The translations under genes and the position numbers were made by a program. Shown here in pieces: positions 4,247-23,180 of a stretch of 64,000 nucleotides of DNA. The notes below the pieces were generated by a model that ran no database searches, was not told the DNA's origin, and was given only the letters and a program-made list of their open reading frames with translations. Each line of letters begins with the position of its first letter. The stretch's first letter is position 1. Source of the DNA: a virus; the IMG/VR virus record IMGVR_UViG_3300023720_000218; one strand, given 5' to 3'.

Positions 4247-4339
4247 CGTGTTTATTTTGTGTTTATGTTGAATAAAAAAAGAGTCAGACAATGCTTTTTG
4301 CATCAATCTGACTCTTTGGTCTTATTTTCCATTTAATAG

Positions 4340-4421
4340 TGGGCAGTATTGGACTCGAACCAATGAAGACGAAAGCCAATAGATTTACAGTCTATCCCGT
4401 TTGCCACTTCGGTAACTACCC
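4340..4421 (-). tRNA. tRNA-Tyr (anticodon GTA), type II with long variable arm
   Basis: RC gives GGGTAGT…GACTGTAAATC…GGTTCGAGTCC…ACTGCCCA. There is a 7-bp acceptor stem, an anticodon loop CTGTAAA and a T-arm ATTGG/TTCGAGT/CCAAT. Confidence 0.75.
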
Positions 4422-4427
4422 GTTTTG

Positions 4428-4512
4428 CGGAAGCAGAAGGATTCAAACCTCCGAAGCCTTTCAGCTTGCCTCTTTAGCAAAGAGGTGGTATCGTTCACTC
4501 ACCCATACTTCC
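4428..4512 (-). tRNA. tRNA-Ser (anticodon GCT), type II
   Basis: RC gives GGAAGTA…CCTCT TTGCTAA AGAGG…GGTTTGAATCC…TGCTTCCG. It has a long variable arm and a perfect acceptor stem. Confidence 0.75.
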
Positions 4513-4585
4513 AATATGCGACCTACAAGATGTCTCGGTGAAACCACCGCATTTCCCTTGTATTTCGGACGTTATTCATTCTGTG

Positions 4586-4657
4586 TAGCGTATCAGAGAA
4601 TCGAACTCTGGTTTCCACCGTGAAAAGGTGACGACCTAACCGTTAGTCGAATACGCC
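4586..4657 (-). tRNA. tRNA-Glu (anticodon TTC)
   Basis: RC gives GGCGTAT…TCACC TTTTCAC GGTGG…CAGAG TTCGATT CTCTG ATACGCT A. The 5' end is uncertain by ±1 nt (G1-U72 wobble). Confidence 0.6.
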
Positions 4658-4662
4658 ATTTG

Positions 4663-4733
4663 TTGAGATACAAGGATTTGAACCTTGAATAGCAGAACCA
4701 AAATCTGCTGTGTTGCCATTACACCATATCTCA
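4663..4733 (-). tRNA. tRNA-Gln (anticodon TTG)
   Basis: RC gives TGAGATA…GCAGA TTTTGGT TCTGC…CAAGG TTCAAAT CCTTG TATCTCA A. The U1-A72 pair is typical of tRNA-Gln. Confidence 0.7.
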
Positions 4734-4738
4734 ATATG

Positions 4739-4811
4739 CGCGAAGAGAAGGACTCGAACCCCCGACAATCAGGTTTGGAATCTGACGTTCTTCCAACTGA
4801 ACTATCTCCGC
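4739..4811 (-). tRNA. tRNA-Trp (anticodon CCA)
   Basis: RC gives GCGGAGA TA GTTC AGTTGGAA GAAC G TCAGA TTCCAAA CCTGA…GGGGG TTCGAGT CCTTC TCTTCGC G. Confidence 0.65.
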
Positions 4812-4818
4812 TTCATTG

Positions 4819-4891
4819 CGCCCGGTGATAGAATCGAACTACCGACCTTTACATTAACAGTGTATTGCTCTACCAATTGAGCTAACCGGAC
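4819..4891 (-). tRNA. tRNA-Asn (anticodon GTT)
   Basis: RC gives GTCCGGT TA GCTC AATTGGTA GAGC A ATACA CTGTTAA TGTAA AGGTC GGTAG TTCGATT CTATC ACCGGGC G. Confidence 0.75.
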
Positions 4892-4897
4892 AATATA

Positions 4898-4965
4898 CCT
4901 ATACTCACCTAACCTGCGATACCCCATTTCAGCGTACCTGTGGGAATTGAACCACACCGTATAGG
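4898..4965. other. tRNA-like element with a perfect 7-bp terminal stem (CCTATAC/GTATAGG) and a T-arm-like hairpin; probably a degenerate pseudo-tRNA
   Basis: The hairpin TGTGG-GAATTGAA-CCACA (read on the minus strand as TTCAATTC) sits at the wrong end for a minus-strand tRNA. No consistent D-arm or anticodon arm could be folded in either orientation. Confidence 0.2.
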
Positions 4966-4970
4966 TTTTG

Positions 4971-5043
4971 TGGAAAGAGATGAAATCGAATCACCTTAAC
5001 CGGATTTTCAGTCCGGCGCATACACCACGTCTGCCATCTTTCC
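4971..5043 (-). tRNA. tRNA-Phe (anticodon GAA), atypical 3-bp D-stem
   Basis: RC gives GGAAAGA…CCGGA CTGAAAA TCCGG TTAA GGTGA TTCGATT TCATC TCTTTCC A. It has a perfect acceptor stem and a canonical T-arm. No CCA is encoded. Confidence 0.6.
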
Positions 5044-5108
5044 ATATTCTCCCTTTATCCCCATACGCCACATCGAAGGGAGAAACAATGCGGCAACTCC
5101 AACTATTG

Positions 5109-5181
5109 TTGCGGAGATTCGACTCGAACGAATGACCTTTGGGCTATGATCCCAACGAGCTACCAGCTGCTCCACTCCGCG
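5109..5181 (-). tRNA. initiator tRNA-fMet (anticodon CAT)
   Basis: RC gives CGCGGAG TG GAGC AGCTGGTA GCTC G TTGGG ATCATAG CCCAA AGGTC ATTCG TTCGAGT CGAAT CTCCGCA A. The C1·A72 mismatch and the three consecutive G-C pairs closing the anticodon stem are bacterial initiator hallmarks. Confidence 0.7.
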
Positions 5182-5379: not shown

Positions 5380-5559
5380 ACTCCATGTTTTCGTTGCAAA
5401 TATATGTACTGGATTTCTTTTCTCAAAACATTTTTGATATTATTTTCTATTAAAATGTAGAAAATAATACTCTTTATGCGTATTTTTGTACTGCAATATT
5501 AGAATCAGAGCTTATAGGCCGGTCTCCACATGTGTAATGTGAGGATCGGTTTTCTTTTT

Positions 5560-7164
5560 ATGGAGAAATATAGTGGAATAAAAACGGTTAATGCCAGTTT
5601 GGTGCTTGATTATGAATATATCCAAATGTTAAGGGACGCGGATAGGAAAATTCCTAATCCGAATAAGATAATCGCACAAGGTGGAGGGCAGGAAAACATG
5701 CTCTCCACCCCGGCTGATATTACCATCTGTGGGGGATGCCGTGGAGGAAGTAAAACTTTTACTCTTCTTATGGAAACATTGAAAGATATAAAAAATAAAA
5801 ACTTCCGTTCTGTGCTTCTCCGGCATGAGATAGACGATCTCTCTGATATGGTAGAAACATCATCCACCTTATATGATGATTTTGGGGAATACAACAAGTC
5901 CAAAAACGACATGCGCTGGAATTTCTATAAAGGTGGATTTTTAAAATTCAGCTATCACGCTGACACACTTGACGATTTCAAAAAGCGTTTTCAAGGTAAA
6001 CAGTTCGCATATATAGGTGTGGATGAAATAACCCACATGGAATATCTCAAATTCAAATACCTTATCACTTGTAACCGTAACGCCTTTCATATCCGTAACC
6101 GCTTTATCGGAACATGTAACCCTGATCCTGACAGCTGGGTTGCAAAATTCATTGACTGGTGGATCGGAGAAGATGGTCTTCCAATCCCGGAACGTGATGG
6201 CAGAGTCCGGTATTGTTTTATGGACGGGGACAATGTTTCAGGTATATATTGGGGAGATACCCGTGAGGAAGTATATGAGCAATGCAAGGATATTATACAC
6301 GCCTACTGGAAGCCGGAGTATGAGCAATATGGCACACCACAAGAACTGTTTATCAAGTCGGTTACTTTTATTGAAGCAAAACTTTCCGATAATGTAAAAC
6401 TGATGTCTTCTGATCCGACCTATTTGGCTAACCTTGTCAACCAGTCAGATGAACAACGCGCACGCGATCTTGACGGTAACTGGAAATACAAAGCTGCCGG
6501 AGATGATATAATAAAGCTGACTCACATGGAAGCCTTATACCGCAATTCCATGCAGATAGGTGATGGAATACGCCGGGTATCATGTGATGCGGCATTTGAG
6601 GGTGGCGACAGTCTTGTCATGTGGCTGTGGGAAGGATGGCATATAAGAGACATATTTGTTTGCAAACTTGACAGCAAGAAAACAGTCGATACCGTAAAAG
6701 CGATGCTGGAAGAATGGCATGTAAGAGAAGAATGCTTCACCTATGACCTTAACGGACTCGGACAAATATTCAAAGGCTTTTTCCCGAATGCAATCCCATT
6801 CAACAACAAAGAAGCCGTGGAAGAGAAATTCAAATACATCTATGCGAATTTAAAATCACAAGCGGCATATCTGTTCGCACAAAAAATTATCAACCGGGAG
6901 ATTTCCATTGAACCGACTCTTCTTGAACGCAAGTTCTCCGGCAAAGGGTTTGAGAAAGTTCCCCTTAGACAGATTCTCGACAAGGAAAGGAAAGCGATAC
7001 GAAAGGATGAAGACAGTGAAGAGAAAGGCTGGACTATTATCAAGAAGATTATAATGAAAAAATTAGTAGGTCATTCTCCCGACTTCATAGAAGCATTGCT
7101 TATGCGAATGATTTTTGAAATTAAACATAAACGCAAACATATAAAAGGTTTAGGATTAATATGA
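5560..7164 (+). CDS. terL: terminase large subunit (PBSX/Terminase_6-like)
   Basis: N-terminal Walker A (ICGGCRGGSKTFTLL) and Walker B (IGVDEITHM), about 530 aa, directly followed by the portal gene. Start chosen at MEKYSG (ATG at 5560). Confidence 0.8.
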   Translation: MEKYSGIKTVNASLVLDYEYIQMLRDADRKIPNPNKIIAQGGGQENMLSTPADITICGGCRGGSKTFTLLMETLKDIKNKNFRSVLLRHEIDDLSDMVETSSTLYDDFGEYNKSKNDMRWNFYKGGFLKFSYHADTLDDFKKRFQGKQFAYIGVDEITHMEYLKFKYLITCNRNAFHIRNRFIGTCNPDPDSWVAKFIDWWIGEDGLPIPERDGRVRYCFMDGDNVSGIYWGDTREEVYEQCKDIIHAYWKPEYEQYGTPQELFIKSVTFIEAKLSDNVKLMSSDPTYLANLVNQSDEQRARDLDGNWKYKAAGDDIIKLTHMEALYRNSMQIGDGIRRVSCDAAFEGGDSLVMWLWEGWHIRDIFVCKLDSKKTVDTVKAMLEEWHVREECFTYDLNGLGQIFKGFFPNAIPFNNKEAVEEKFKYIYANLKSQAAYLFAQKIINREISIEPTLLERKFSGKGFEKVPLRQILDKERKAIRKDEDSEEKGWTIIKKIIMKKLVGHSPDFIEALLMRMIFEIKHKRKHIKGLGLI

Positions 7165-8657
7165 TAGCAGAGATTCTTACAAAAAAGCCTTTTGCAAGGG
7201 TTACTCCCGAAGGTTACTTGCAAGGCAGGATTACGAGCGATTTAAGAAACGCATCGTTCACAAACAACAGTGATAGGCTGACATGGCAGCTCATTTCGCA
7301 GGCTGATTTTATCCGTGAGTTTTATCCTTCAGGGCACAAGATCAATTCGGAATTGTTTTACCCGGACAGACTGAAATATGACGAAGAGAAGAAACGGTTC
7401 TTCCGGGAGAAAGTATTCCGTGCTTCTTTTCCCTTTCAGATGATAATCACTATCCAACAACTTGTACATCTATGTGGCAATGACATTCATCATGAGCTGA
7501 CCGATACCAAAGTTGATGAAAGTTCACGGGAAATATTTCTCGAATTTCAAAAAGGATGGCTGGATAAAAATATGGAGATTGCATTTTACGAATATGCCAA
7601 AAGTGTAAAAATAACGGGAGATGCAGCAATCGTATTCTATATGAATGAAGGTAAGGTATTCACCAAGAATCTTTCCTATTTTGATGGTGACACTCTTTAT
7701 CCTCACTACGACTCCATAACCGGTCAAATGACACTGTTTGCCCGACGATACAGTGACTATGACGAAGAGGGAAAGGAACTCATTTCTTGGGTAGAAGTGT
7801 GGGACAATAAAAAAATGTACCGTTACCGTCAGGATAAAGGGGGAATAGTCGGAGCAATAAACAAATTGAAACAGTATTTCGGTATTGAAGGATATACATT
7901 AGTGGAAGAACACGATCATGGATTTGCCGAATGTCCGGTTGTATATTATCGGGACAAACACGGTGCCTGCTGGAGCTTTTCACAAGATAATATCGACAAG
8001 TACGAACTGGCTATTTCCCATTTGTGTCAAAACAATATGGCATACGCATTTCCGATCATGTTACTTAAAGGTGAAGATGTTGAGATTCAAGGAGATATGT
8101 ATGGTGCGGTAAAAGCTATCACTATGGGGAAGGATGATGATGCAGGCTTTATGAATCGTCCCGAAGCATCACAATCATTTGAACTTCAAATTAATACATT
8201 ACTTAAAATGATTTTTATGGGGAGTTTTGTTGTCATGCCTCCCGAAGTAAAGTCAGGAGATTTGCCGGGTGTGGCTATCAAGCTGATATATTCACCATCT
8301 TTGGAAAAAGCCATGATTGACTGCAAGGAATTTGACGAATCAATAGACAAAATGAAACGGCTGTTCCTGCACGGATATGGAACTGAAAAAGGCCAACTTA
8401 CCAAATTCCTCAATTTGAAGATTTTTTCGTGGGCAGTTCCATACGTCCACCAAAATGCAGCAGAATTGGTATCGAACTTGGTACAATTAGTCGGTGCCGG
8501 TATTTTATCAAAAGAAACCGGCTCGGAAGAATCCGGCTATGGGAAAAACAATGAATGGGATCGTATCATGCGTGAATATAAGGAACAGCAACAAGCTGAC
8601 TTGCTATATCAACTGAAAATCAAGAAAAATGAAAATAAAGAGGGTAATGCAAAATGA
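7161..8657 (+). CDS. portal protein
   Basis: 498-aa ORF with an ATGA overlap to the terL stop. The size and position are typical of an SPP1-type portal. No motif was verified. Confidence 0.55.
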   Translation: MIAEILTKKPFARVTPEGYLQGRITSDLRNASFTNNSDRLTWQLISQADFIREFYPSGHKINSELFYPDRLKYDEEKKRFFREKVFRASFPFQMIITIQQLVHLCGNDIHHELTDTKVDESSREIFLEFQKGWLDKNMEIAFYEYAKSVKITGDAAIVFYMNEGKVFTKNLSYFDGDTLYPHYDSITGQMTLFARRYSDYDEEGKELISWVEVWDNKKMYRYRQDKGGIVGAINKLKQYFGIEGYTLVEEHDHGFAECPVVYYRDKHGACWSFSQDNIDKYELAISHLCQNNMAYAFPIMLLKGEDVEIQGDMYGAVKAITMGKDDDAGFMNRPEASQSFELQINTLLKMIFMGSFVVMPPEVKSGDLPGVAIKLIYSPSLEKAMIDCKEFDESIDKMKRLFLHGYGTEKGQLTKFLNLKIFSWAVPYVHQNAAELVSNLVQLVGAGILSKETGSEESGYGKNNEWDRIMREYKEQQQADLLYQLKIKKNENKEGNAK

Positions 8658-8737
8658 TCTGTACCAAAACGCGGAGCGCGAAAGCAATCCCGTACTCCGC
8701 GCTCCGAATCCAATGTAACTATACATCGGAAAAATCC

Positions 8738-11106: not shown

Positions 11107-12744
11107 CTATTTGGTTCTTATTTTTAATTGTTTGATAATCTTCTCCACAGCGTCCAAGTCAAAAACTGTTGTTCTTTTCTCCATGTGGTACGTCCCTTCC
11201 AGTTTCTTCTCCCGGAACAAACGCTGAACTTGATAAATGCTTAATGACAAGCAAGCCGCAAGTCCTTCATGGGTATAGGCATATCGTTTGCCATCTTTGT
11301 AAACCGGTTTGGCGATCCTTTGCTTATAGTTGCCCCGTAAGTCTTCCCGTTTCTCATAATAGAGTTTTTCCGTCAAGGCTGTTCCATATAAGCCATATAC
11401 CTGACCGTTCGGGGTTCTTTTTTTGCGATAACCGGCTTCCGAAAGAATACGTCCGAATACTGTCACATTCTCTTCTTTGGCATTATTGTCCCTACACCAT
11501 TTGCAATATTTCCGGTACAGAATGGCCGAAGACATCCATTTGGGTTCAATATCAGCAATTTCCTCATAGCGGCACAGATAGTTCATTTGATACATGAACT
11601 TCATTACGGTACTACTTTCCGACTGATATTCATCCATGACATTTTCAAGCTCCTTACTGTCTGTCAACTTATAACCATTGGCGATAAAACGGTCACGTCC
11701 TTCCAATATCCAATTGAATATAGCTGGGTATTCGGCCTCCAAATCCCGTGACAGTTCTTTTTTCTGCCGGGCTTTGGGTATCTCCACCTCAAAGGGAATA
11801 ATGCAAATACGCCGCCTCATTCCATAGCTCCAGTCTTTCAAATACGGCATTTGGTTGGCATTTGCCATAAGCAGAAGAATATTGTAAGCAGTGAAGTTAT
11901 CGCCATAGATAGGCCGGGCTTCGGTAGGTTCACCACTGATAAGGCTCTTCAACGTGTCACTATCCTTACCAAACTCTAACGCTTGTATTTCAGAACAGTA
12001 GTTCAACCGCTTGCCATTAATGAAAGCGATATTTTTTTTTCTCTCATTTCCAGTAATCAATGCACCTATGCCGAAATTGCTGACATTCTCCCGGCCAAGT
12101 ATGCCCATGATCGTTTCAAAGACTACACTTTTGCCATTGGAGCCGGAGCCACGAAGAACAAGCATAGTTTCCATTTTCGCCACACGCCGGTCAACAAAAA
12201 TACTTCCAAGAAACTCCTGCAAAACTTTTTGCATGTTTTTGTCCGGCAAAACTTCATCCAGGAACATTCTCCAAAGAAAGACATGCTCTTCCGGCTTGTA
12301 GTCATAGGGAACACATGTAGTCTGTACCCAACGGCGGTTGAAAGAATGTGCACGGCGAGCATTCATATCAAACACACAGTTATTGAACACCACAATGGCA
12401 TTATCAGGCTTCAAGGCTTTTCCTGCCACCACACGCTTACAGACTTTCAGTACACCCTCCACACGGGAATAATCACCATTGGGCATTTTGCATTTACGCA
12501 TCAAGTCATATATCAGATTGCCAAAATCATCCCATGCCATCTCTTCATATATCCGGCCACTGAAATAGTAAGGCGTACCATTGAACTTACAAATCGAAGA
12601 TCGTATAATGGCTGCACGCATCAAGTCCTGCACAGCGTCAACACGCGCTGCACTTTTGGACTCTTGTAAGGCGGCATCCAGTTTCTCGCCTTTCATAAGC
12701 CCGAAGACCTCATTTAACAACTTCCTATACTTTCCCTTCTCCAT
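11107..12744 (-). CDS. phage/plasmid primase, P4-family C-terminal domain with SF3 (D5-like) helicase NTPase
   Basis: Walker A LRGSGSNGKSVVFETI and Walker B-like LLLMANANQMP. It is about 545 aa and sits next to the iteron region. Start taken at MEKGKYRKL (ATG at 12744); an upstream in-frame ATG at 12774 is also possible. Confidence 0.65.
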   Translation of the reverse strand: MEKGKYRKLLNEVFGLMKGEKLDAALQESKSAARVDAVQDLMRAAIIRSSICKFNGTPYYFSGRIYEEMAWDDFGNLIYDLMRKCKMPNGDYSRVEGVLKVCKRVVAGKALKPDNAIVVFNNCVFDMNARRAHSFNRRWVQTTCVPYDYKPEEHVFLWRMFLDEVLPDKNMQKVLQEFLGSIFVDRRVAKMETMLVLRGSGSNGKSVVFETIMGILGRENVSNFGIGALITGNERKKNIAFINGKRLNYCSEIQALEFGKDSDTLKSLISGEPTEARPIYGDNFTAYNILLLMANANQMPYLKDWSYGMRRRICIIPFEVEIPKARQKKELSRDLEAEYPAIFNWILEGRDRFIANGYKLTDSKELENVMDEYQSESSTVMKFMYQMNYLCRYEEIADIEPKWMSSAILYRKYCKWCRDNNAKEENVTVFGRILSEAGYRKKRTPNGQVYGLYGTALTEKLYYEKREDLRGNYKQRIAKPVYKDGKRYAYTHEGLAACLSLSIYQVQRLFREKKLEGTYHMEKRTTVFDLDAVEKIIKQLKIRTK

Positions 12745-12751
12745 GTACAAT

Positions 12752-13015
12752 CTATGAATTTGAATACCCGGCACGGGTTAAGGCCTCAACCATATATACT
12801 GACAGATTATTTATAGCAACATCTCCTGAATATCCAAATCGCCACAAATCAGTACGCCAGTCCTCTAAAGATGTGTCACAAGGTATATGATATTTTTGCA
12901 TAATATCTCGCATCACCGCACAATCTTCATATCTTTCCTCTTCCTGCGCTTTTCTGAACACAGAAACAAAAACGTATCGCCCATAATCAAACAATATAGA
13001 CTCAAACTTATTCAT
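12752..13015 (-). CDS. hypothetical protein
   Basis: 87-aa ORF between the iteron region and the primase gene. Confidence 0.3.
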   Translation of the reverse strand: MNKFESILFDYGRYVFVSVFRKAQEEERYEDCAVMRDIMQKYHIPCDTSLEDWRTDLWRFGYSGDVAINNLSVYMVEALTRAGYSNS

Positions 13016-13318
13016 ACCACCGTTTTTATACCCGAAAACAAAGCATTTCTACTGTTTTTATGCTATTTTTCAAGTGTTTTATGCCACAAATATAGCTTAT
13101 TTTCTACATAATTACCATATAAATACTATTATTTTCTACTTAAAATATAGAATAAACACGCTTTTTTGAAGTCTTTTTGCCATGTTTTTATTCGTTGCAT
13201 CATTGAAGACCAATAATCGCAAAATATTGATAAACAAAGGATAACTACTCTATTTCAATAGGAAATACAGATGGAACATTCTCTCTGATATGTATGGTTT
13301 ATGTAGGGTTTTAAAGGC

Positions 13319-13552
13319 AACTATACATATATAACATATTGAAATACAAATCAATGGAAAAATAGTGCATAGTATGTATAGTTTTTTATGCAAACCATAT
13401 TATATATATTTTTTTCCCATACGCAATTTACATATAAACTATACATACTATACATTAAATTTCCATTGACCTAATAATGAATGATTTACACATGTATAGT
13501 TATGAAGTAAACTATACATATACTATACATTTTCAGAAGTAAAACTATACAT
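13319..13552. repeat. iteron cluster: at least 9 copies of (A)ACTATACAT in both orientations; candidate replication origin
   Basis: Forward copies at 13319, 13437, 13447, 13510, 13522 and 13543. Reverse copies (ATGTATAGTT) at 13374 and 13492, plus a 1.5-copy at 13366-13383. The cluster lies in a 750-bp AT-rich non-coding gap upstream of the primase/helicase operon. Confidence 0.5.
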
Positions 13553-13775
13553 CGGACATTCACTTTTGTAATTTATCATTGGAAAAGCCTTAAAAACATC
13601 CATTATTGGCTCCAAAAAAGAAAAAAAAATAAAAATCTTGACCGGGATTGAAACATGCTTGGTGTCTTGGGTAGCCGGGGGGGGGTGCCCTCCCTGCTTT
13701 CATTATCCAGTTGACCGGCAAAGAAGGAGAAAAGCCGCGCTTTGCCTTGATTCTCTTTATATTATACCTATAATA

Positions 13776-14411
13776 TTAAATATTATCCGGCTTTTCCGCT
13801 TCTTCTGCTTTCCGTTTTGCTCGATCAGCTATAAAAAGGCTGCATCTATAACATTGCAAAGGCAGATAATAATGTACTGTTTCCTCTTCTTCTGTATTTT
13901 CGTCCTTCTTCATCTGTTGTAAATCGGCTATTTTCATTAATACATCCGCGCGATCTTTCCCCCTTAAATAAGGTAGGGTTTGTTCGAGACCTGATAAAAC
14001 CGCGTCTTTATCCCGATATTGTACAACATTCCCGGCTTTTTCTTCCTCTTCTGCTTCTGTGTTTTTCTTTTTCTTCTTGCTTTTGGTGCTATCATTGTCA
14101 GGAAGGAAGGCCGCGCGGTTATCTTCAAAAGATCGTATAAGCTTATTAATACCGGGTTTATCCTTTGCAAGTTGGGCGGCTCCGCGTTGCGCCGTTTCTA
14201 TTTTGGTTGATCGTGGTCTAAATATAGTTGCGTATGCTTCGCCACGACTGGCGCCGGATGCTACAAGCATACAAAAGAAAACATCATCCGGGTTTAATTG
14301 ATAAATTTGCTGTAAATCTGTTACGCGCTTACTATACACCATATAAAACGATATAAAAGGGTTTATTATATTGGCGTCTCGCGCTCTGTAACTTGCTACA
14401 AAGTTAAACAA
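13776..14411 (-). CDS. hypothetical Lys/Glu-rich protein
   Basis: 211-aa ORF at the first position of the CpG-rich module. Confidence 0.35.
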   Translation of the reverse strand: MFNFVASYRARDANIINPFISFYMVYSKRVTDLQQIYQLNPDDVFFCMLVASGASRGEAYATIFRPRSTKIETAQRGAAQLAKDKPGINKLIRSFEDNRAAFLPDNDSTKSKKKKKNTEAEEEEKAGNVVQYRDKDAVLSGLEQTLPYLRGKDRADVLMKIADLQQMKKDENTEEEETVHYYLPLQCYRCSLFIADRAKRKAEEAEKPDNI

Positions 14412-14692
14412 AGGCTATAAATAAAGCAAATAAGCATATTTAGATGTTTACATCTATAAATATTTCCTTACTTCTTAAATGCTTTATATTTATTCCCTTG
14501 TTGTTATATAATATACTGATAATCAATATATTATACAAGTATTAATAAATGCAAAAAATGGAGTGTTTCCTTAAAAATAAAGATACATTTTGTTTTGTAT
14601 TACAAATATTATTCGTATCTTTGTAATACAGAAAAGGAGATAAACGGTTAACGTCTTCCACACTTTCCCGTTTTTACTTCTTCTTTGGTTGA

Positions 14693-14956
14693 ATGTTTAA
14701 TTTAAAATATAAGATCATGGAAGTATTACTAAACTTACAAAACAAAAATGTAACGCTAAACGCCGTACATGTAGCCCCGGAGGGCACAAACTGTTGCAAC
14801 CGTTTAAAGGTTCATTTTGATGTATTTCAGGAAACAGCGAAAAAAGCCGCTATTATAAGACTATCGACGGCAAACAGTTTTGAACTGATTCACTATCAAG
14901 ATAAACATATAGCGTTATTAATACCTTTTGATCGCATTCAAAAGATTTCATACTAA
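14693..14956 (+). CDS. hypothetical protein
   Basis: 87-aa ORF preceded by the repeat CGGTTAACGTCTTCCACA (14646-14663). Confidence 0.3.
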   Translation: MFNLKYKIMEVLLNLQNKNVTLNAVHVAPEGTNCCNRLKVHFDVFQETAKKAAIIRLSTANSFELIHYQDKHIALLIPFDRIQKISY

Positions 14957-15098
14957 TAAAAAAAGCCGGATCAGTGCGTTAACTTCTCCGGCCTCCCTTT
15001 AAACTTTGCGTTTATCGGTTAACGTCTTCCACAACGTTAAATGCAAAGTTAAGGGAAAAACAAAGACAAACCAAGTTTCACCCTTTAATTTTTGCGTT

Positions 15099-15380
15099 AT
15101 GAACACAGATTTATTAATTATCTACATTCGCAATTCTCGCGATATTTACGCGCTTACTGAATGGTTGCAAAATGCACTTTTGAAAAAAGTAAACCGCGGT
15201 TTAACTCCTTCCGTTGAATATCTTGCAAACTGTTCCACTATGAAAAAGATCGTCCGGATGGCTGCAAAAATGCTTTCCGATCAGGATCATAAGACCGCAA
15301 CCAAGCAAGAAAAAGAACAAGCGGCAAGAGAACACGCGGCCTATATTATCGGATGCGTGGAATATCTTTCTAAATTCTAA
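15099..15380 (+). CDS. hypothetical protein
   Basis: Start placed at MNTDLL because the conserved upstream motif CCCTTTAATTTTTGCGTTATG abuts this ATG. The ORF track reports a longer frame from 15006. Confidence 0.35.
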   Translation: MNTDLLIIYIRNSRDIYALTEWLQNALLKKVNRGLTPSVEYLANCSTMKKIVRMAAKMLSDQDHKTATKQEKEQAAREHAAYIIGCVEYLSKF

Positions 15381-19911: not shown

Positions 19912-21168
19912 ATGAAAGCTATTATAATATATTCAGGCAAAGGCGGCGTAGGCAAAACCACAACAACCGCAAATATAGCAAGATTACTTGCAAAACAAGG
20001 GAATAAGGTATTTATCATTGATGCAGATATAAATACCCCGTCAATGAACACCGAATTTGAAGGCGATCATCCGCATGAAATGATTTGGGTACACTCTTCT
20101 GGAAATATGTTTTCCAAGTTTATTTACTTGGAAAAATCAATGGTAAGGCAATATCTTGAACTGGCTAAAAAGAAAATACACTCTATCAACCCGGATTATG
20201 TTCTTATTGACACGCCTCCAAGTGTTACAAACGTGCATATAGAACTTCTTAGTAGGGTAAAAGTAAGTTATGTGCTGTTTGTCACCCAACCCACGAAATT
20301 AAGCAACCAAGATGTATTGCGTACAATGGACTTCTTTCATGAAAGATGTGGGAAGGTTAATTGTGGTATTGTGGAGAATATGTGCTATGGTACAGAACAT
20401 AATGAATACCCGATAAGACTTGTTGCACAAATACCCATGCAGGACAACATGAATACCGAAAACCTGCTAACCAATGCCTATAATGAGTTTCAAAAGATAG
20501 TTGATGAAATCGTACAGAGTGATATTGTTGTTCTTGAAGAATATTCCACCGAAAACGGATATGATGAAAACTTTGATGTTACGGATATACACATTACCGG
20601 CTCACGAAAACATTACTTTACTCATGAACTTAAATATGATAATGGTGTAGAAAAAACTCTTACTCTACCTGCTATGAAATTTCTGTCTGTAAGAACATGG
20701 GATAAAATAAGAGATTATATCCGGTTCCATGATGATTTGGGACATCTTTGGGACGAGAGAATGAGAAGATGTGATACAGAAAGGGTGGGCAGAGTAGTAA
20801 ATCATTTCCAAAATGACGATAACGCCTATTTTATGGTTATAAATGCGCCAAACACGGAAGTTCATCTCATTACTGGAGAAATCGGAATCTGTTCTTTATT
20901 GACTGGGCAGAGAGGGCATTTTGAACTACCAAGAGTCAGTTATCAAACGAGTAAAGGAAACGTGGTGCTGTTCCCTGATGAAATCATGCCAGTAGATATA
21001 AACTTGCTACAACAAGAAATAAACGAAGGCTATATAATGTTAAGTGACGGGAGATACTTACCACCGAAAGAAGCGGTACAACAATGTTACAACGCTTTCG
21101 GCATAAGGGTTGGCTTAGGTGATAATTGGGAAGATATTTATGATGGTTGGAATAAAGAAATGAAATAA
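19912..21168 (+). CDS. MinD/ParA/Mrp-superfamily P-loop ATPase (Mrp/NBP35-like) with a ~170-aa C-terminal extension
   Basis: Deviant Walker A SGKGGVGKTTTTANIA and an FIIDADINTPSM motif resembling Mrp/ApbC (DADIYGPS). Also VLIDTPPS and a CGIVENMCYG segment. Confidence 0.55.
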   Translation: MKAIIIYSGKGGVGKTTTTANIARLLAKQGNKVFIIDADINTPSMNTEFEGDHPHEMIWVHSSGNMFSKFIYLEKSMVRQYLELAKKKIHSINPDYVLIDTPPSVTNVHIELLSRVKVSYVLFVTQPTKLSNQDVLRTMDFFHERCGKVNCGIVENMCYGTEHNEYPIRLVAQIPMQDNMNTENLLTNAYNEFQKIVDEIVQSDIVVLEEYSTENGYDENFDVTDIHITGSRKHYFTHELKYDNGVEKTLTLPAMKFLSVRTWDKIRDYIRFHDDLGHLWDERMRRCDTERVGRVVNHFQNDDNAYFMVINAPNTEVHLITGEIGICSLLTGQRGHFELPRVSYQTSKGNVVLFPDEIMPVDINLLQQEINEGYIMLSDGRYLPPKEAVQQCYNAFGIRVGLGDNWEDIYDGWNKEMK

Positions 21169-21170
21169 AA

Positions 21171-21989
21171 ATGAAAGACTTACGTATAGCATTCTTGGCA
21201 AAATACCCCAAATATGAAATTATACTCAACATGTATAGTCGGGCAAATGATTGCCCGGCAACATGGGAGAATCTTTCAAAAGTCCGATTGCAGACTTTTG
21301 TTGATTATATGGAAGAACGGCTGGCACCAAACTCTGTTCGCCAATATGCCGCCAAATTAAAAGCTGTATTGAACTTGTATAATGAAGAGGTTGAGCTACC
21401 TAAAGACTATAATAAAATCCTTTCAGTAAAAAATGTGAGAAGCACTAATGTTTGGCTTACTGATGAAGAACTTGAACGAATTATCACCTATGCTCCCAAG
21501 AATACCAACGAACAATTGGTACGCACACAATTTTTAATAGGCGCCTTTACCGGTTGCCGTCATAGTGACTATACACGGTTGAACAACCGTAATATAGTGG
21601 GTGGAATGATCTCTTATGTCAGCCTAAAAACTAAAACTCATGCCACGGTGCCATTGAAGCCAATCGTGAAAGAGCTACTAACAAATTTACCTAAAGAAGA
21701 AGTTAGTGATCCGACATTCAACAATAATATCCGTAATATTTGCCGGAAAGCCGGAATCACAGAGGCGGTTAAAGTATTCAAGGCCGGAAAGGAAGTGGAA
21801 GGTGAAAAATGGGAATTTGTTTCAAGCCACACGGCACGCCGGAGTTTTGCAACCAATTTGTATTTACGCGGTGCCGATTTATACTCAATAAGCCAAATGA
21901 TGGGACATGCAAGCGTGGAAATGACTCAAAATTATCTTTGCTGTGGTCTCCGTGAACAATCGGCACAAGTTATGGAGTATTTTAAATGA
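21171..21989 (+). CDS. tyrosine recombinase (short, Xer-like; 272 aa)
   Basis: Catalytic R (…FTGCRHSD…), H-x-x-R (SSHTARRSFAT) and Y (…MTQNYL…). It has no long N-terminal arm-binding domain. Confidence 0.65.
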   Translation: MKDLRIAFLAKYPKYEIILNMYSRANDCPATWENLSKVRLQTFVDYMEERLAPNSVRQYAAKLKAVLNLYNEEVELPKDYNKILSVKNVRSTNVWLTDEELERIITYAPKNTNEQLVRTQFLIGAFTGCRHSDYTRLNNRNIVGGMISYVSLKTKTHATVPLKPIVKELLTNLPKEEVSDPTFNNNIRNICRKAGITEAVKVFKAGKEVEGEKWEFVSSHTARRSFATNLYLRGADLYSISQMMGHASVEMTQNYLCCGLREQSAQVMEYFK

Positions 21990-21994
21990 AACAA

Positions 21995-22031
21995 GCCACG
22001 CTAAATATCGGTAGAACTATTTTAGCGTGGC
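21995..22031. terminator. bidirectional terminator: perfect 11-bp inverted repeat GCCACGCTAAA / TTTAGCGTGGC
   Basis: It lies between the convergent recombinase (ends 21989) and integrase (ends 22041) genes. Confidence 0.5.
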
Positions 22032-22040
22032 TCTCTTATA

Positions 22041-23180
22041 CTATGACAAAATCCGTTCCAGCATCTCAAAGTCTTTTTCCACTTCGGCATTCAGAACTTT
22101 AGCATATTGTTGTGTGGTGCGTACATTTGTATGACCGAGCATTTTACTCACATTTTCCATTTTAACCCCATTGTTCAGGCACATTGTCGCAAATGTGTGC
22201 CTGCTCATGTGAACGGTCAAATTTCTATCAAGCCCTGCATAATCAGCAACTATTTTAAGCCGCAAATTGTATTGTTGATTACTGATAATCGGAAGCACAT
22301 AATCATATTTTTTCAATATTTCCATTGCAGGAGACAGTAATACGATAAAATAGTTTTCTTCTGTCTTTAAACGAATATCCAATATAACATACTTATTGCC
22401 GCGTTTTTGTACGTCACGTTTGAAATTGAATTTAGCAAGATCAGCATAGGATATTCCAGTATATGCCTGAAAAATAAAAAGGTCACGGACTCTACAGATC
22501 GTTTCCGAGTCTATTTGAGCATCTTTCACTTTCTTCAATTCTTCGGCAGTCAAATATTTCCTGATGGCATGTTTGCCACGGGAAAAACGCTCCCCCTTAT
22601 ACGGATCATTTTTTAGCAAATCAAACTTTATGGCCTCGTGGATATAACGTTTGTTACGTTTATGATAGTTATATATTGTCGGCTGTGAATAGCCCTTAGC
22701 ATGTAACCAATCATCATACAATGTGATATTGGCTTTTGTGAGATCAGAAAAATATATTATTCTGTCAAATTCACGTAATGAGGCCGCAAATGTCCGATGG
22801 GAAGCTTTGGTACTTTCCGTTATATCTCCACGCTCTTCAATTCTTCTTTCTACAAAGTCAACAAAACTTTCTGATTTATTGGTATATCTCAAAAATCTAT
22901 CCAGCTTATCAAAATCAAAAACTTCCTTTTTGCTGATAAGTTCATTAATCCAATTTTGGATAACCCGGAGTTGTTCATCAAGACACTGGTTCAATTGAAT
23001 CATTTCAACCGAATTGATTATCTTCTTTCGATCATTCCATTGGTCGGAATAGACTTTAACGCCGGTTCCGATCCATTTTCTCTTACCTTCGCTCAAAACT
23101 TCAATTTGAACGAGTCCCTTGTGTGTCTTTGTCGCAACCTTTTTACGGTCAAAGACGAATCTCATTGTCGGATATTTCAT
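22041..23180 (-). CDS. int: site-specific tyrosine integrase (Bacteroidetes type with N-terminal arm-binding domain)
   Basis: 379-aa ORF whose C-terminal catalytic region MSRHTFATMCLNNGV…LGHTNVRTTQQYAKV carries the H-x-x-R…Y motifs. The N-terminus (MRFVFDRKKVATKTHKGLVQIEV…) is typical of Bacteroides phage and conjugative-transposon integrases. Confidence 0.8.
   Translation of the reverse strand: MKYPTMRFVFDRKKVATKTHKGLVQIEVLSEGKRKWIGTGVKVYSDQWNDRKKIINSVEMIQLNQCLDEQLRVIQNWINELISKKEVFDFDKLDRFLRYTNKSESFVDFVERRIEERGDITESTKASHRTFAASLREFDRIIYFSDLTKANITLYDDWLHAKGYSQPTIYNYHKRNKRYIHEAIKFDLLKNDPYKGERFSRGKHAIRKYLTAEELKKVKDAQIDSETICRVRDLFIFQAYTGISYADLAKFNFKRDVQKRGNKYVILDIRLKTEENYFIVLLSPAMEILKKYDYVLPIISNQQYNLRLKIVADYAGLDRNLTVHMSRHTFATMCLNNGVKMENVSKMLGHTNVRTTQQYAKVLNAEVEKDFEMLERILS

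Follow-up and report, generated by a model that had tools for sequence, protein, structure and literature searches.

A candidate replication origin of the self-loading helicase type in LoVEphage-like temperate phages of Bacteroides and Phocaeicola

In a 64,000-nucleotide stretch of viral DNA (IMG/VR record IMGVR_UViG_3300023720_000218; this whole stretch is called the window below), 11 short sites form a mirror-symmetric array between a small-terminase-like gene, here named X, and the operon of a superfamily 3 (SF3) helicase. We hypothesize, with moderate confidence, that this array (13290-13552) is a phage replication origin of the self-loading SF3 helicase type. An iteron-type origin beside the helicase had been proposed from the letters of the window alone (the original prediction), and it is the best-supported reading of the array: the sites are kept among relatives, the layout is kept in a relative where the repeated word has changed, and the array recurs beside DUF5906 helicases in otherwise unrelated phages. 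By analogy, the array appears to be a further example of the origin design of Staphylococcus aureus pathogenicity islands (SaPIs) and phage P4, and no new kind of system. A replication origin is not described for LoVEphage, to which the window is closely related, in the first description of that phage as covered by a term search, nor in the passages of later papers that deal with LoVEphage, BI-TP1 and PV4-TP1.

A mirror-symmetric array of 9-bp sites

The word ACTATACAT occurs exactly 10 times in the window when both strands are counted, where 0.56 +/- 0.70 copies are expected and 100 shuffles gave a maximum of two. Eight of these 10 copies lie within 233 bp (13320-13552), and the array is essentially confined to one locus of the genome. 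Three degenerate copies (ACCATACAT, ACCCTACAT and ACTATGCAC) bring the sites of the array to 11; the "at least nine copies" of the original prediction are therefore reached only if degenerate copies are counted. The tandem doublets that it described are real, with spacings of 9 bp (13438/13447) and 11 bp (13511/13522), and the stretch was correctly taken to be non-coding, since it runs from 13016 to 13775 between minus-strand open reading frames (ORFs) at 12752-13015 and 13776-14342. A lone exact copy at 8718-8726 (plus strand) lies in the gap after the portal gene, the equivalent place of gene X in distant phages; it is retained in most close relatives and is missing from the group with 72-73% identical helicases.

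Five sites lie to the left and six to the right of an AT-rich centre, and the coordinates describe an exact dyad about position 13410, with the singles centred +/-86 bp and the 11-bp doublets +/-110.5 bp from it. A repeat finder independently reported inverted arms of 66 nt (13319-13384 / 13436-13501). GC content is 0.317 in 13001-14000 and about 0.39 in the window as a whole, and the centre falls inside a 220-bp zone of low stability, where values of -41 to -44 kcal per 40 bp compare with -51.7 +/- 3.9 for the mean of the window; we infer that the centre, 13383-13437, is the melting region. The original prediction had placed an unwinding element at 13016-13300, an interval that contains no dedicated element of this kind because it holds a Bacteroides-type promoter (with TATATTTG) and TAGAAAATA repeats in a mosaic promoter segment (13016-13280).

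In SaPI origins, 6-12 short iterons are split evenly between the two sides of an AT-rich centre, the two halves pointing in opposite directions; SaPI Rep is a self-loading helicase whose C-terminal winged helix reads these iterons, and one hexamer per side has been proposed (PMC9371898). The window likewise encodes a D5_N/DUF5906 SF3 helicase beside its repeats, and its 11 short repeats form two opposed sets flanking an AT-rich region; the repeat unit of 9 bp exceeds the 5-8 bp of the known examples (pentamers and hexamers in SaPIs, octamers in P4), a difference of size and not of design. If replication proceeds along the same lines here, the winged helix of the helicase would read the 9-mers, one hexamer would form on each arm of five to six sites, and the pair would melt the AT-rich centre and load itself for bidirectional unwinding. 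Host polymerase would then be recruited together with the phage's own sliding clamp and single-stranded DNA-binding protein; the annotation of the close relative PV4-TP1 lists no phage DNA polymerase.

Other repeat-based interpretations fit less well. The sites do not agree with the DnaA-box consensus TTATNCACA, and the tolerated variants ACCCTACAT and ACCATACAT alter positions that are essential in a DnaA box. Iterons of Rep_3/RepA plasmids are direct repeats of 17-22 bp, whereas the units here are 9 bp long and stand in both orientations, and Pfam and PHROG scans of the neighbouring proteins found no Rep_3-type initiator. A miniature inverted-repeat transposable element or transposon was set aside, as the array is a single copy at a conserved position.

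Conservation among relatives and recurrence in unrelated phages

Relatives were drawn from IMG/VR, Logan and GTDB, and the array was footprinted over eight of them, with helicase identity down to 69%. The original prediction would have been given up had the repeats been lost from related phages; instead the sites are kept and the spacers diverge, site positions being 78-94% identical to the window and non-site positions of the array 46-76%. Among relatives with helicases 69-73% identical, the corresponding ranges are 78-91% for sites and 46-57% for spacers, and across relatives the centre retains its AT-richness and not its sequence. These alignments indicate that selection acts at the sites and not on the spacers. 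The order of elements is the same in relatives with helicase identities of 95%, 89%, 73% and 69-70% (X identities of 85%, 72% and 47-51%). Near-identical relatives are uninformative on site conservation, and show a swapped promoter segment and small ORF next to an unchanged array.

In a more distant relative, L092 (loci and contigs used for comparison carry L numbers), whose helicase is 39% identical, 11 copies of an unrelated 9-mer, CTGAATATT, take the place of the word found in the window (P<0.0005 by shuffling). Their left side is made up of a single, an 11-bp doublet, an inverted single and a 9-bp doublet, followed by an AT-rich centre and a right side of a 9-bp doublet, an 11-bp doublet and a single, such that the whole is again mirror-symmetric. 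A layout that is kept while its word is exchanged is the expected product of a co-evolving protein-site system. L081 (helicase 52% identical) has a looser cluster, of ACTATNCAC-type sites. In L148-L151 a TRAATATT cluster stands with a hairpin and A/T-box module upstream of the helicase, and X, located behind the portal gene, is about 3 kb away. Not every member of the helicase family is accompanied by an array: none was found by de novo repeat searches in Dulem virus 40, L059, L061, L086 or L091. Scans of IMG/VR with the L092 and L081 helicases returned no further relatives.

Some other phages have repeat arrays of different kinds next to their replication genes. L065 carries about ten tandem 10-bp units of CCATTTCCGA (6411-6497 and 6783-6892) immediately 3' of a D5-like helicase gene; in Parabacteroides phage PF672P2 (L008, 4145-4406), AAGGTAGG occurs twice directly and twice inverted upstream of a gene annotated as "alpha"; and GTTTGCACT occurs seven times after an AAA_25 gene in L064 (1400-2000).

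The 18-mer doublet ACTATACATACTATACAT was used to scan IMG/VR, which yielded 74 DNA stretches, and 71 loci were compared with LoVEphage. At 25 of the 71, no tblastn match (E<=1e-4) was obtained to X, helicase, large terminase (TerL) or portal of LoVEphage; LoVE-family profile searches (E<=1) of these 25 contigs returned nothing, and BLAST with any LoVEphage ORF matched only a methylase (L182/L229) and, weakly, L177. About a dozen of the 25 contain two to four ATGTATAGT at 9-bp spacing, a spacer of 60-75 bp and two to four ACTATACAT, commonly with outlying inverted pairs. A 36-nt tandem of the motif gave no BLAST match in the phage collection, probably owing to masking by the low-complexity filter. 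The sharing of one 9-mer and one layout across lineages is the most notable result of this work. In L191/L180/L218/L235, in L179 and in L211, the dyad lies immediately 3' of the gene for a 760-795-aa PriCT_2/DUF5906 primase-helicase, which is the position of SaPI origins, and at least three otherwise unrelated phage lineages thus carry it directly 3' of a DUF5906 primase-helicase. The array of L232 is about 1.9 kb from a PriCT_2/DUF5906-type gene, and L236 is a weak case.

An identical 9-mer in unrelated phages could also be the mark of a host factor, that is, of a host-encoded protein common to the hosts of many unrelated phages and acting in an architectural, replication or defence role. This explanation, which we consider quite improbable, agrees with the presence of the same 9-mer and dyad in contigs without any detectable LoVEphage protein, among them L230, where an array stands near an ABC-transporter permease gene. 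It accords poorly with the different words of close relatives (CTGAATATT in L092, GTRAATATT in L148-L151), all the more as L081 and L092 both come from Muribaculaceae genomes and differ in their words; the lack of a DnaA-box match and the site variants that break essential positions of that box count against it too, and it leaves the recurrent adjacency to one helicase family unexplained. The array of L230 (2523-2623) is a minimal ACTATACAT dyad of two sites, a 66-bp spacer and two sites, about 0.7 kb upstream of the permease gene; this contig is predicted to be viral and may represent a non-phage context of the motif.

The packaging alternative and the candidate readers of the array

The main rival to a replication origin is a packaging (pac) site bound by X, which would direct the first terminase cut of a headful series; we judge it unlikely. 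X is a protein of 188 aa that belongs to no Pfam family; five helices make up its N-terminal domain, its linker is rich in K and E, and its C-terminal motif, LRGKDRADVLMKIADLQQMKKEE..VHYYLPL.C..C, is very conserved. Its AlphaFold model (predicted local distance difference test score, pLDDT, 74.5) matches mostly small terminases (TerS) in BFVD, at probabilities of 0.87-1.0 and template-modelling (TM) scores of only 0.25-0.38, and fold and profile searches of the PDB gave no informative match. From these low-TM fold matches and from synteny, X is probably an unconventional small terminase: its gene directly follows TerL and portal in about 25 distant phage contigs, and in other phages follows the helicase gene (L059) or precedes the helicase operon. 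Since X has a predicted TerS-like fold, forms part of the TerL-portal module in many distant phages and is the sole TerS candidate of the genome (no other is annotated in PV4-TP1), the array, 224-486 bp downstream of its stop codon at 13776, could be a pac site.

Further observations agree with packaging. The genome is reported to be circularly permuted, as fits pac-type packaging, and pac sites usually lie in or beside terS; that of phage P1 has two sets of short (hexamer) repeats flanking the cut site. Identical arrays are found just upstream of TerS-TerL genes in L185 (Pfam-supported, Terminase_4) and in L182/L229 (putative), and after portal and minor capsid genes in L241. However, the putative small terminases next to arrays are unrelated to one another (X, Terminase_4 in L185, an unassigned 149-aa protein in L182), and all of them would need to recognize the same 9-mer; the helicases beside arrays, unlike these TerS families, are all of the DUF5906 type. 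The putative recognition helix of X is nearly the same in phages with ACTATACAT and in L092 with CTGAATATT, and is similar in relatives without an array, which makes helix 3 of X an unlikely reader. Moreover, the array accompanies the helicase, and not X or the terminase, in L148-L151 and in L191, L179 and L211. The TerS DNA-binding domains that have been studied bind pac with little sequence specificity (PMC4737164), whereas the 9-mers are strictly conserved.

Two observations on X stand apart from this argument. Its homologues in L070 (Dulem virus 40), L086 and L091, which have no clear array, and in L081, with its loose array, carry a canonical AT-hook (RGRP) in the linker; and the X gene of Dulem virus 40 (L070 12197-12766) is absent from the annotation, where small minus-strand ORFs are given in its place.

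For the replication origin, the proposed reader and initiator is the helicase. The original prediction spoke of a primase/helicase operon; an SF3 helicase operon does adjoin the array, and Pfam and PHROG scans detected no primase domain in the 555-aa protein, which has the Pfam domains D5_N, DUF5906/VapE and Pox_D5/DUF3874 and belongs to PHROG 864 (1.9e-126). Its sole sequence match in the PDB is 7OLA, the SaPI5 protein PriRep5 (E=3.5e-9); no sequence match to the P4 origin-binding domain was obtained from it, and a homologue search with its C-terminus found fragments only. A winged-helix-type region lies at about residues 410-462, with matches to DUF3874 (E=2.8e-6) and Pox_D5 (E=8.5e-4) that both fall slightly short of the Pfam curated cut-offs; it is followed at about 500-555 by an extra tail resembling Xis/HTH_17 (HTH_17, DUF3853 and Exc matches, all sub-threshold). 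Because the recognition helix of this tail varies strongly among phages that share the motif, the extra helix-turn-helix was set aside as an unlikely reader.

The winged-helix region is the candidate reader in the proposed mechanism. Helicases beside ACTAT.CA. arrays share T-[VK]-F-G-[RN] in this region and, L081 excepted, a K-[KR]-R wing, and those beside other words or without an array differ at these positions. The L179 helicase can be aligned with that of LoVEphage only here (35.6% identity over 73 aa, E=0.005). Covariation of the winged-helix residues (T-K-F-G-R and K-K-R) with the motif is thus suggestive in these alignments.

Several points weigh against a replication origin. In LoVEphage the array lies upstream of the operon, its nearest site about 520 bp and its whole extent about 520-780 bp from the helicase start, and not 3' of the gene as in SaPIs; it is placed directly downstream of X, the small-terminase-like gene. 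DnaA boxes are lacking: TTATCCACA, allowing up to one mismatch, does not occur in 11150-15117. L059, Dulem virus 40, L086 and L091 possess the helicase and no detectable array. Conversely, no helicase is found within the available contig sequence of L182/L229, L185 and L241, where arrays adjoin terminase or portal genes; contigs of this type are mostly short, and a helicase could lie beyond their ends. The possible host factor, the variability of the helicase tail and the few lineages from which the winged-helix covariation was drawn count on the same side. The cumulative GC-skew, a check named in the original prediction, does have its minimum at about 14-16 kb, but this coincides with the switch in gene orientation and is therefore not independent evidence of an origin.

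A reading that joins replication and packaging, to which we give only a slim chance, takes the ACTATACAT dyad to be a portable nucleoprotein hub for the initiation of both, acquired by unrelated lineages with matching winged-helix specificity. It would explain why the array stands beside a helicase in some phages, beside TerS/TerL or portal genes in others, and between both in LoVEphage; the lineages concerned come from gut and environmental samples.

Genomic setting and relation to known systems

Read on the minus strand, the intergenic region leads from the stop of X (13776) through a hairpin (13746-13717), a G/C-run hairpin (13694-13677), a spacer and AAGATTTTTATT with a T-run (13639-13614) to the array (13552-13290), and from there through a mosaic segment of about 190 bp to the promoter, the 87-aa ORF and the helicase (Table 1). 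The promoter is kept in all relatives, L059 and Dulem virus 40 included; a sigma-70 promoter scan, of the wrong promoter type for Bacteroides, gave nothing above shuffles. Its element TAGAAAATA occurs seven times in the window against 1.6 expected, always in intergenic promoter regions: it recurs at three other promoter regions, and two of its loci are inverted pairs of the form TATTTTCTA-N8-TAGAAAATA. It looks, from this distribution, like an operator or promoter element of a phage-wide regulator.

Given its place upstream of this promoter, the array might be a transcriptional control region, a multi-site operator or enhancer for the helicase operon or for read-through from the upstream gene. 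In L092, about 25 bp separate the last site, which overlaps the likely promoter, from the helicase start codon, and initiator-binding repeats are often autoregulatory as well. We nevertheless find such a role quite unlikely: the motif is essentially limited to one locus and is without any copy in the cI/cro region, the symmetry is centred on the AT-rich spacer and not on the promoter, which has its own recurrent motif, and array and promoter, with a mosaic segment between them, keep no constant distance (about 196 bp in the window and about 25 bp in L092). In L191, L179 and L211, furthermore, the array is 3' of the gene.

The G9 run that the original prediction put next to the origin is real (13677-13685), yet it belongs to a separate conserved module, in which it pairs with CCCTCCC (13688-13694) as a hairpin. 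The general form of this module is a G-run, a short loop, a C-run, a constant spacer of about 37 nt, GA[AG]ATTTTTATT and a T-run. All relatives examined have it upstream of the helicase operon, irrespective of the preceding gene (L059 and L149/L150 differ in this gene). Genomes that are otherwise near-identical differ in the length of its C-run (the G-run of the plus strand), from 5 to 10, which could be homopolymer sequencing error or real slippage. The module may be a terminator or insulator, an auxiliary origin element or a packaging signal; in the proposed mechanism it would probably shield the array against transcription that comes from the gene upstream, or serve as an auxiliary origin element. 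RNA folds of 13595-13780 were no better than shuffles on either strand (z = +0.87 and -0.51). The separate stem-loop that begins 30 nt after the stop of the upstream gene is likely to be a terminator hairpin.

The 87-aa ORF had been suggested as an alternative binder of the repeats, and is rejected as such because it is not conserved where the array is unchanged: it and the promoter-proximal 260 bp or so are swapped in LoVEphage MW660583 and OY records for an unrelated 118-aa ORF and different sequence, and it is absent from the group with 72-73% identical helicases. Protein-family scans gave no family match for it. L041 has a 1.1-kb insertion at the site of this mosaic exchange. Elsewhere in the neighbourhood, two near-perfect palindromes (14504-14538 and 14593-14633; 17/17 nt and 88% complementarity) lie where the promoters of X and of the plus-strand operon diverge, and 14504-14543 is the least stable 40-mer of the entire window. 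An Rfam scan of 12500-15000 gave a chance let-7 match only (E=0.41), and a tRNA scan found no tRNA in the array region; eight tRNA genes (Tyr, Ser, Glu, Gln, Trp, Asn, Phe, Met) lie at 4339-5181 on the minus strand, just upstream of the terminase gene.

Table 1. Positions of the array, its elements and neighbouring features (window coordinates unless a relative is named)
Feature	Position	Strand	Remarks
Dyad-symmetric array	13290..13552		Candidate origin core; 11 ACTATACAT-type 9-bp sites, consensus AC[TC][AC]TACA[TC]
Left arm	13290..13382		11-bp doublet 13290(-)/13301(-), inverted single 13320(+), 9-bp doublet 13365(-)/13374(-)
AT-rich centre	13383..13437		55 bp; contains ATATTATATATATTTTTTT
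Right arm	13438..13552		9-bp doublet 13438(+)/13447(+), inverted single 13492(-), 11-bp doublet 13511(+)/13522(+), extra single 13544(+)
Exact ACTATACAT	13320, 13438, 13447, 13511, 13522, 13544	plus	
Exact ACTATACAT	13374, 13492	minus	
Degenerate copy ACCATACAT	13290	minus	
Degenerate copy ACCCTACAT	13301	minus	
Degenerate copy ACTATGCAC	13365	minus	
Helicase operon	~13015 down to 8856	minus	Headed by 87-aa ORF, then 555-aa helicase
D5_N/DUF5906 SF3 helicase, 555 aa	11107..12774	minus	Proposed initiator and array reader
Accessory 87-aa ORF	12752..13015	minus	Between promoter and helicase; not conserved
Helicase-operon promoter	13087..13138	minus	Bacteroides -7 element TATATTTG at 13094->13087
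TAGAAAATA in operon promoter	13098-13106, 13130-13138		
TAGAAAATA sites	5441/5458, 13098/13130, 25361, 61400/61417		
Mosaic exchange	12752-13280		Versus L002 3047-3700
Conserved module	13614..13694	minus	G-run/short loop/C-run hairpin 13677-13694, ~37-nt spacer, AAGATTTTTATT + T-run 13614-13639
Module in relatives	L059 3475-3545, L070 12847-12935, L081 7985-8065, L092 9360-9440, L149 8395-8470		
GGCAAAG...CTTTGCC stem-loop	13717..13746	minus	30 nt after upstream gene stop
X, small-terminase-like protein, 188 aa	13776..14342	minus	Candidate reader if the array is a pac site
TerL	5530-7164		
Portal	7161-8657		
ParA/Mrp-like ATPase	19912-21168		Best Pfam match NUBPL/Mrp iron-transfer family
Arm-domain integrase, 379 aa	22041-23180		Arm-DNA-bind_5 domain

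The window region shares 98% identity with Phocaeicola phage PV4-TP1 and with Bacteroides phage BI-TP1, and 94-96% with Bacteroides phage LoVEphage; by these identities the window is a LoVEphage-type temperate phage of Bacteroides or Phocaeicola. Phages of this group are temperate, have genomes of about 71.5 kb (the start positions of public records are arbitrary) and are highly prevalent in the gut: passages of the respective papers put LoVEphage in about 8% of 1,241 viromes (PMC12629997), and BI-TP1 in 28% and PV4-TP1 in 17.5% of metaviromic data sets (PMC12694917). The window also encodes a sliding clamp, a CI-like repressor, RecT, an exonuclease and two tyrosine recombinases. Genes for a ParA-like ATPase, a 272-aa tyrosine recombinase without an arm domain and the 379-aa arm-domain integrase adjoin at 19912-23180, and the first two may have a role in episome maintenance.

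These genes bear on two further explanations of the array. As a partition centromere for the ParA-like ATPase, it would belong with the ParA/Mrp-type ATPase and short recombinase encoded in the window, and centromeres of types Ib and II are indeed arrays of short repeats. It is, however, 6.4 kb from the ATPase gene, with no ParB-like gene adjacent; the ATPase is most similar to the NUBPL/Mrp family in a genome rich in radical-SAM genes, and the array accompanies helicases in phages that show no ParA, all of which makes a centromere highly improbable. As a phage attachment site (attP), its repeats would be arm-type sites of the integrase, which carries Arm-DNA-bind_5, and attP arms are short repeats in both orientations over about 250 bp. 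The chance of this is practically nil: the array is 8.5 kb from the integrase gene, and attP was excluded because the array lies intact between X and the helicase, not split into attL and attR, in the integrated prophages L078 (Bacteroides sp. GD17, 316-kb contig), L079 and L080; B. acidifaciens and B. pyogenes are among the bacteria that carry such prophages.

Among known systems, SaPI Rep-ori is matched by the LoVEphage array in repeat number, symmetry, AT-rich centre and D5-type SF3 helicase. The two differ in that LoVEphage repeats measure 9 bp against 5-6 bp in SaPIs, are strictly mirrored, with doublets fixed at 9 and 11 bp, and stand upstream of the operon in a 71-kb temperate phage of a Bacteroidota host, with the hairpin and A/T-box module in addition. 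The P4 origin consists of short octamer repeats (type I iterons), direct and inverted. The alpha protein of P4 has an origin-binding winged helix C-terminal to its SF3 helicase (PMC2777425), an order shared by the LoVEphage helicase with its predicted winged-helix region; in contrast, alpha has a DnaG-type primase domain, of which none was detected in the LoVEphage protein, and P4 needs a second, distant repeat region (crr). SV40 large T and papillomavirus E1 are SF3 initiators as well; their head-to-head double hexamers assemble on short repeats that form a dyad with AT-rich DNA on its flanks. They belong to eukaryotic viruses, however, carry the origin-binding domain N-terminally, use four to six sites of 5-6 bp and are homologous only in the SF3 core. 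The origins of lambda and of Rep_3-RepA plasmids also combine initiator-binding repeats with an AT-rich region, but their iterons are 17-22 bp long and mostly direct, within or next to the gene of a dedicated initiator, by which a separate helicase is recruited; an initiator of that kind was not found here. On the packaging side, the repeats of SPP1/SF6 and P1 pac adjoin the small-terminase gene, and the LoVEphage array lies near the gene of the small-terminase-like X. The SPP1 pac comprises direct repeats in three sets, and the SF6 TerS domain shows little specificity for its boxes (PMC4737164); the LoVEphage 9-mers, by contrast, are strictly conserved, and arrays recur beside helicases and beside unrelated terminase families.

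LoVEphage is among the most prevalent temperate phages of the human gut. If the array is its replication origin, the origin of about 260 bp and the helicase would form a minimal replicon for engineering Bacteroides and Phocaeicola phages and vectors, and the locus would provide a marker for phage replication activity in metagenomic coverage. The fixed mirrored layout with exchangeable 9-mers would make the co-evolution of initiator and origin directly testable, and the origin design of the self-loading helicases of SaPIs and P4 would be extended to phages of the Bacteroidota.

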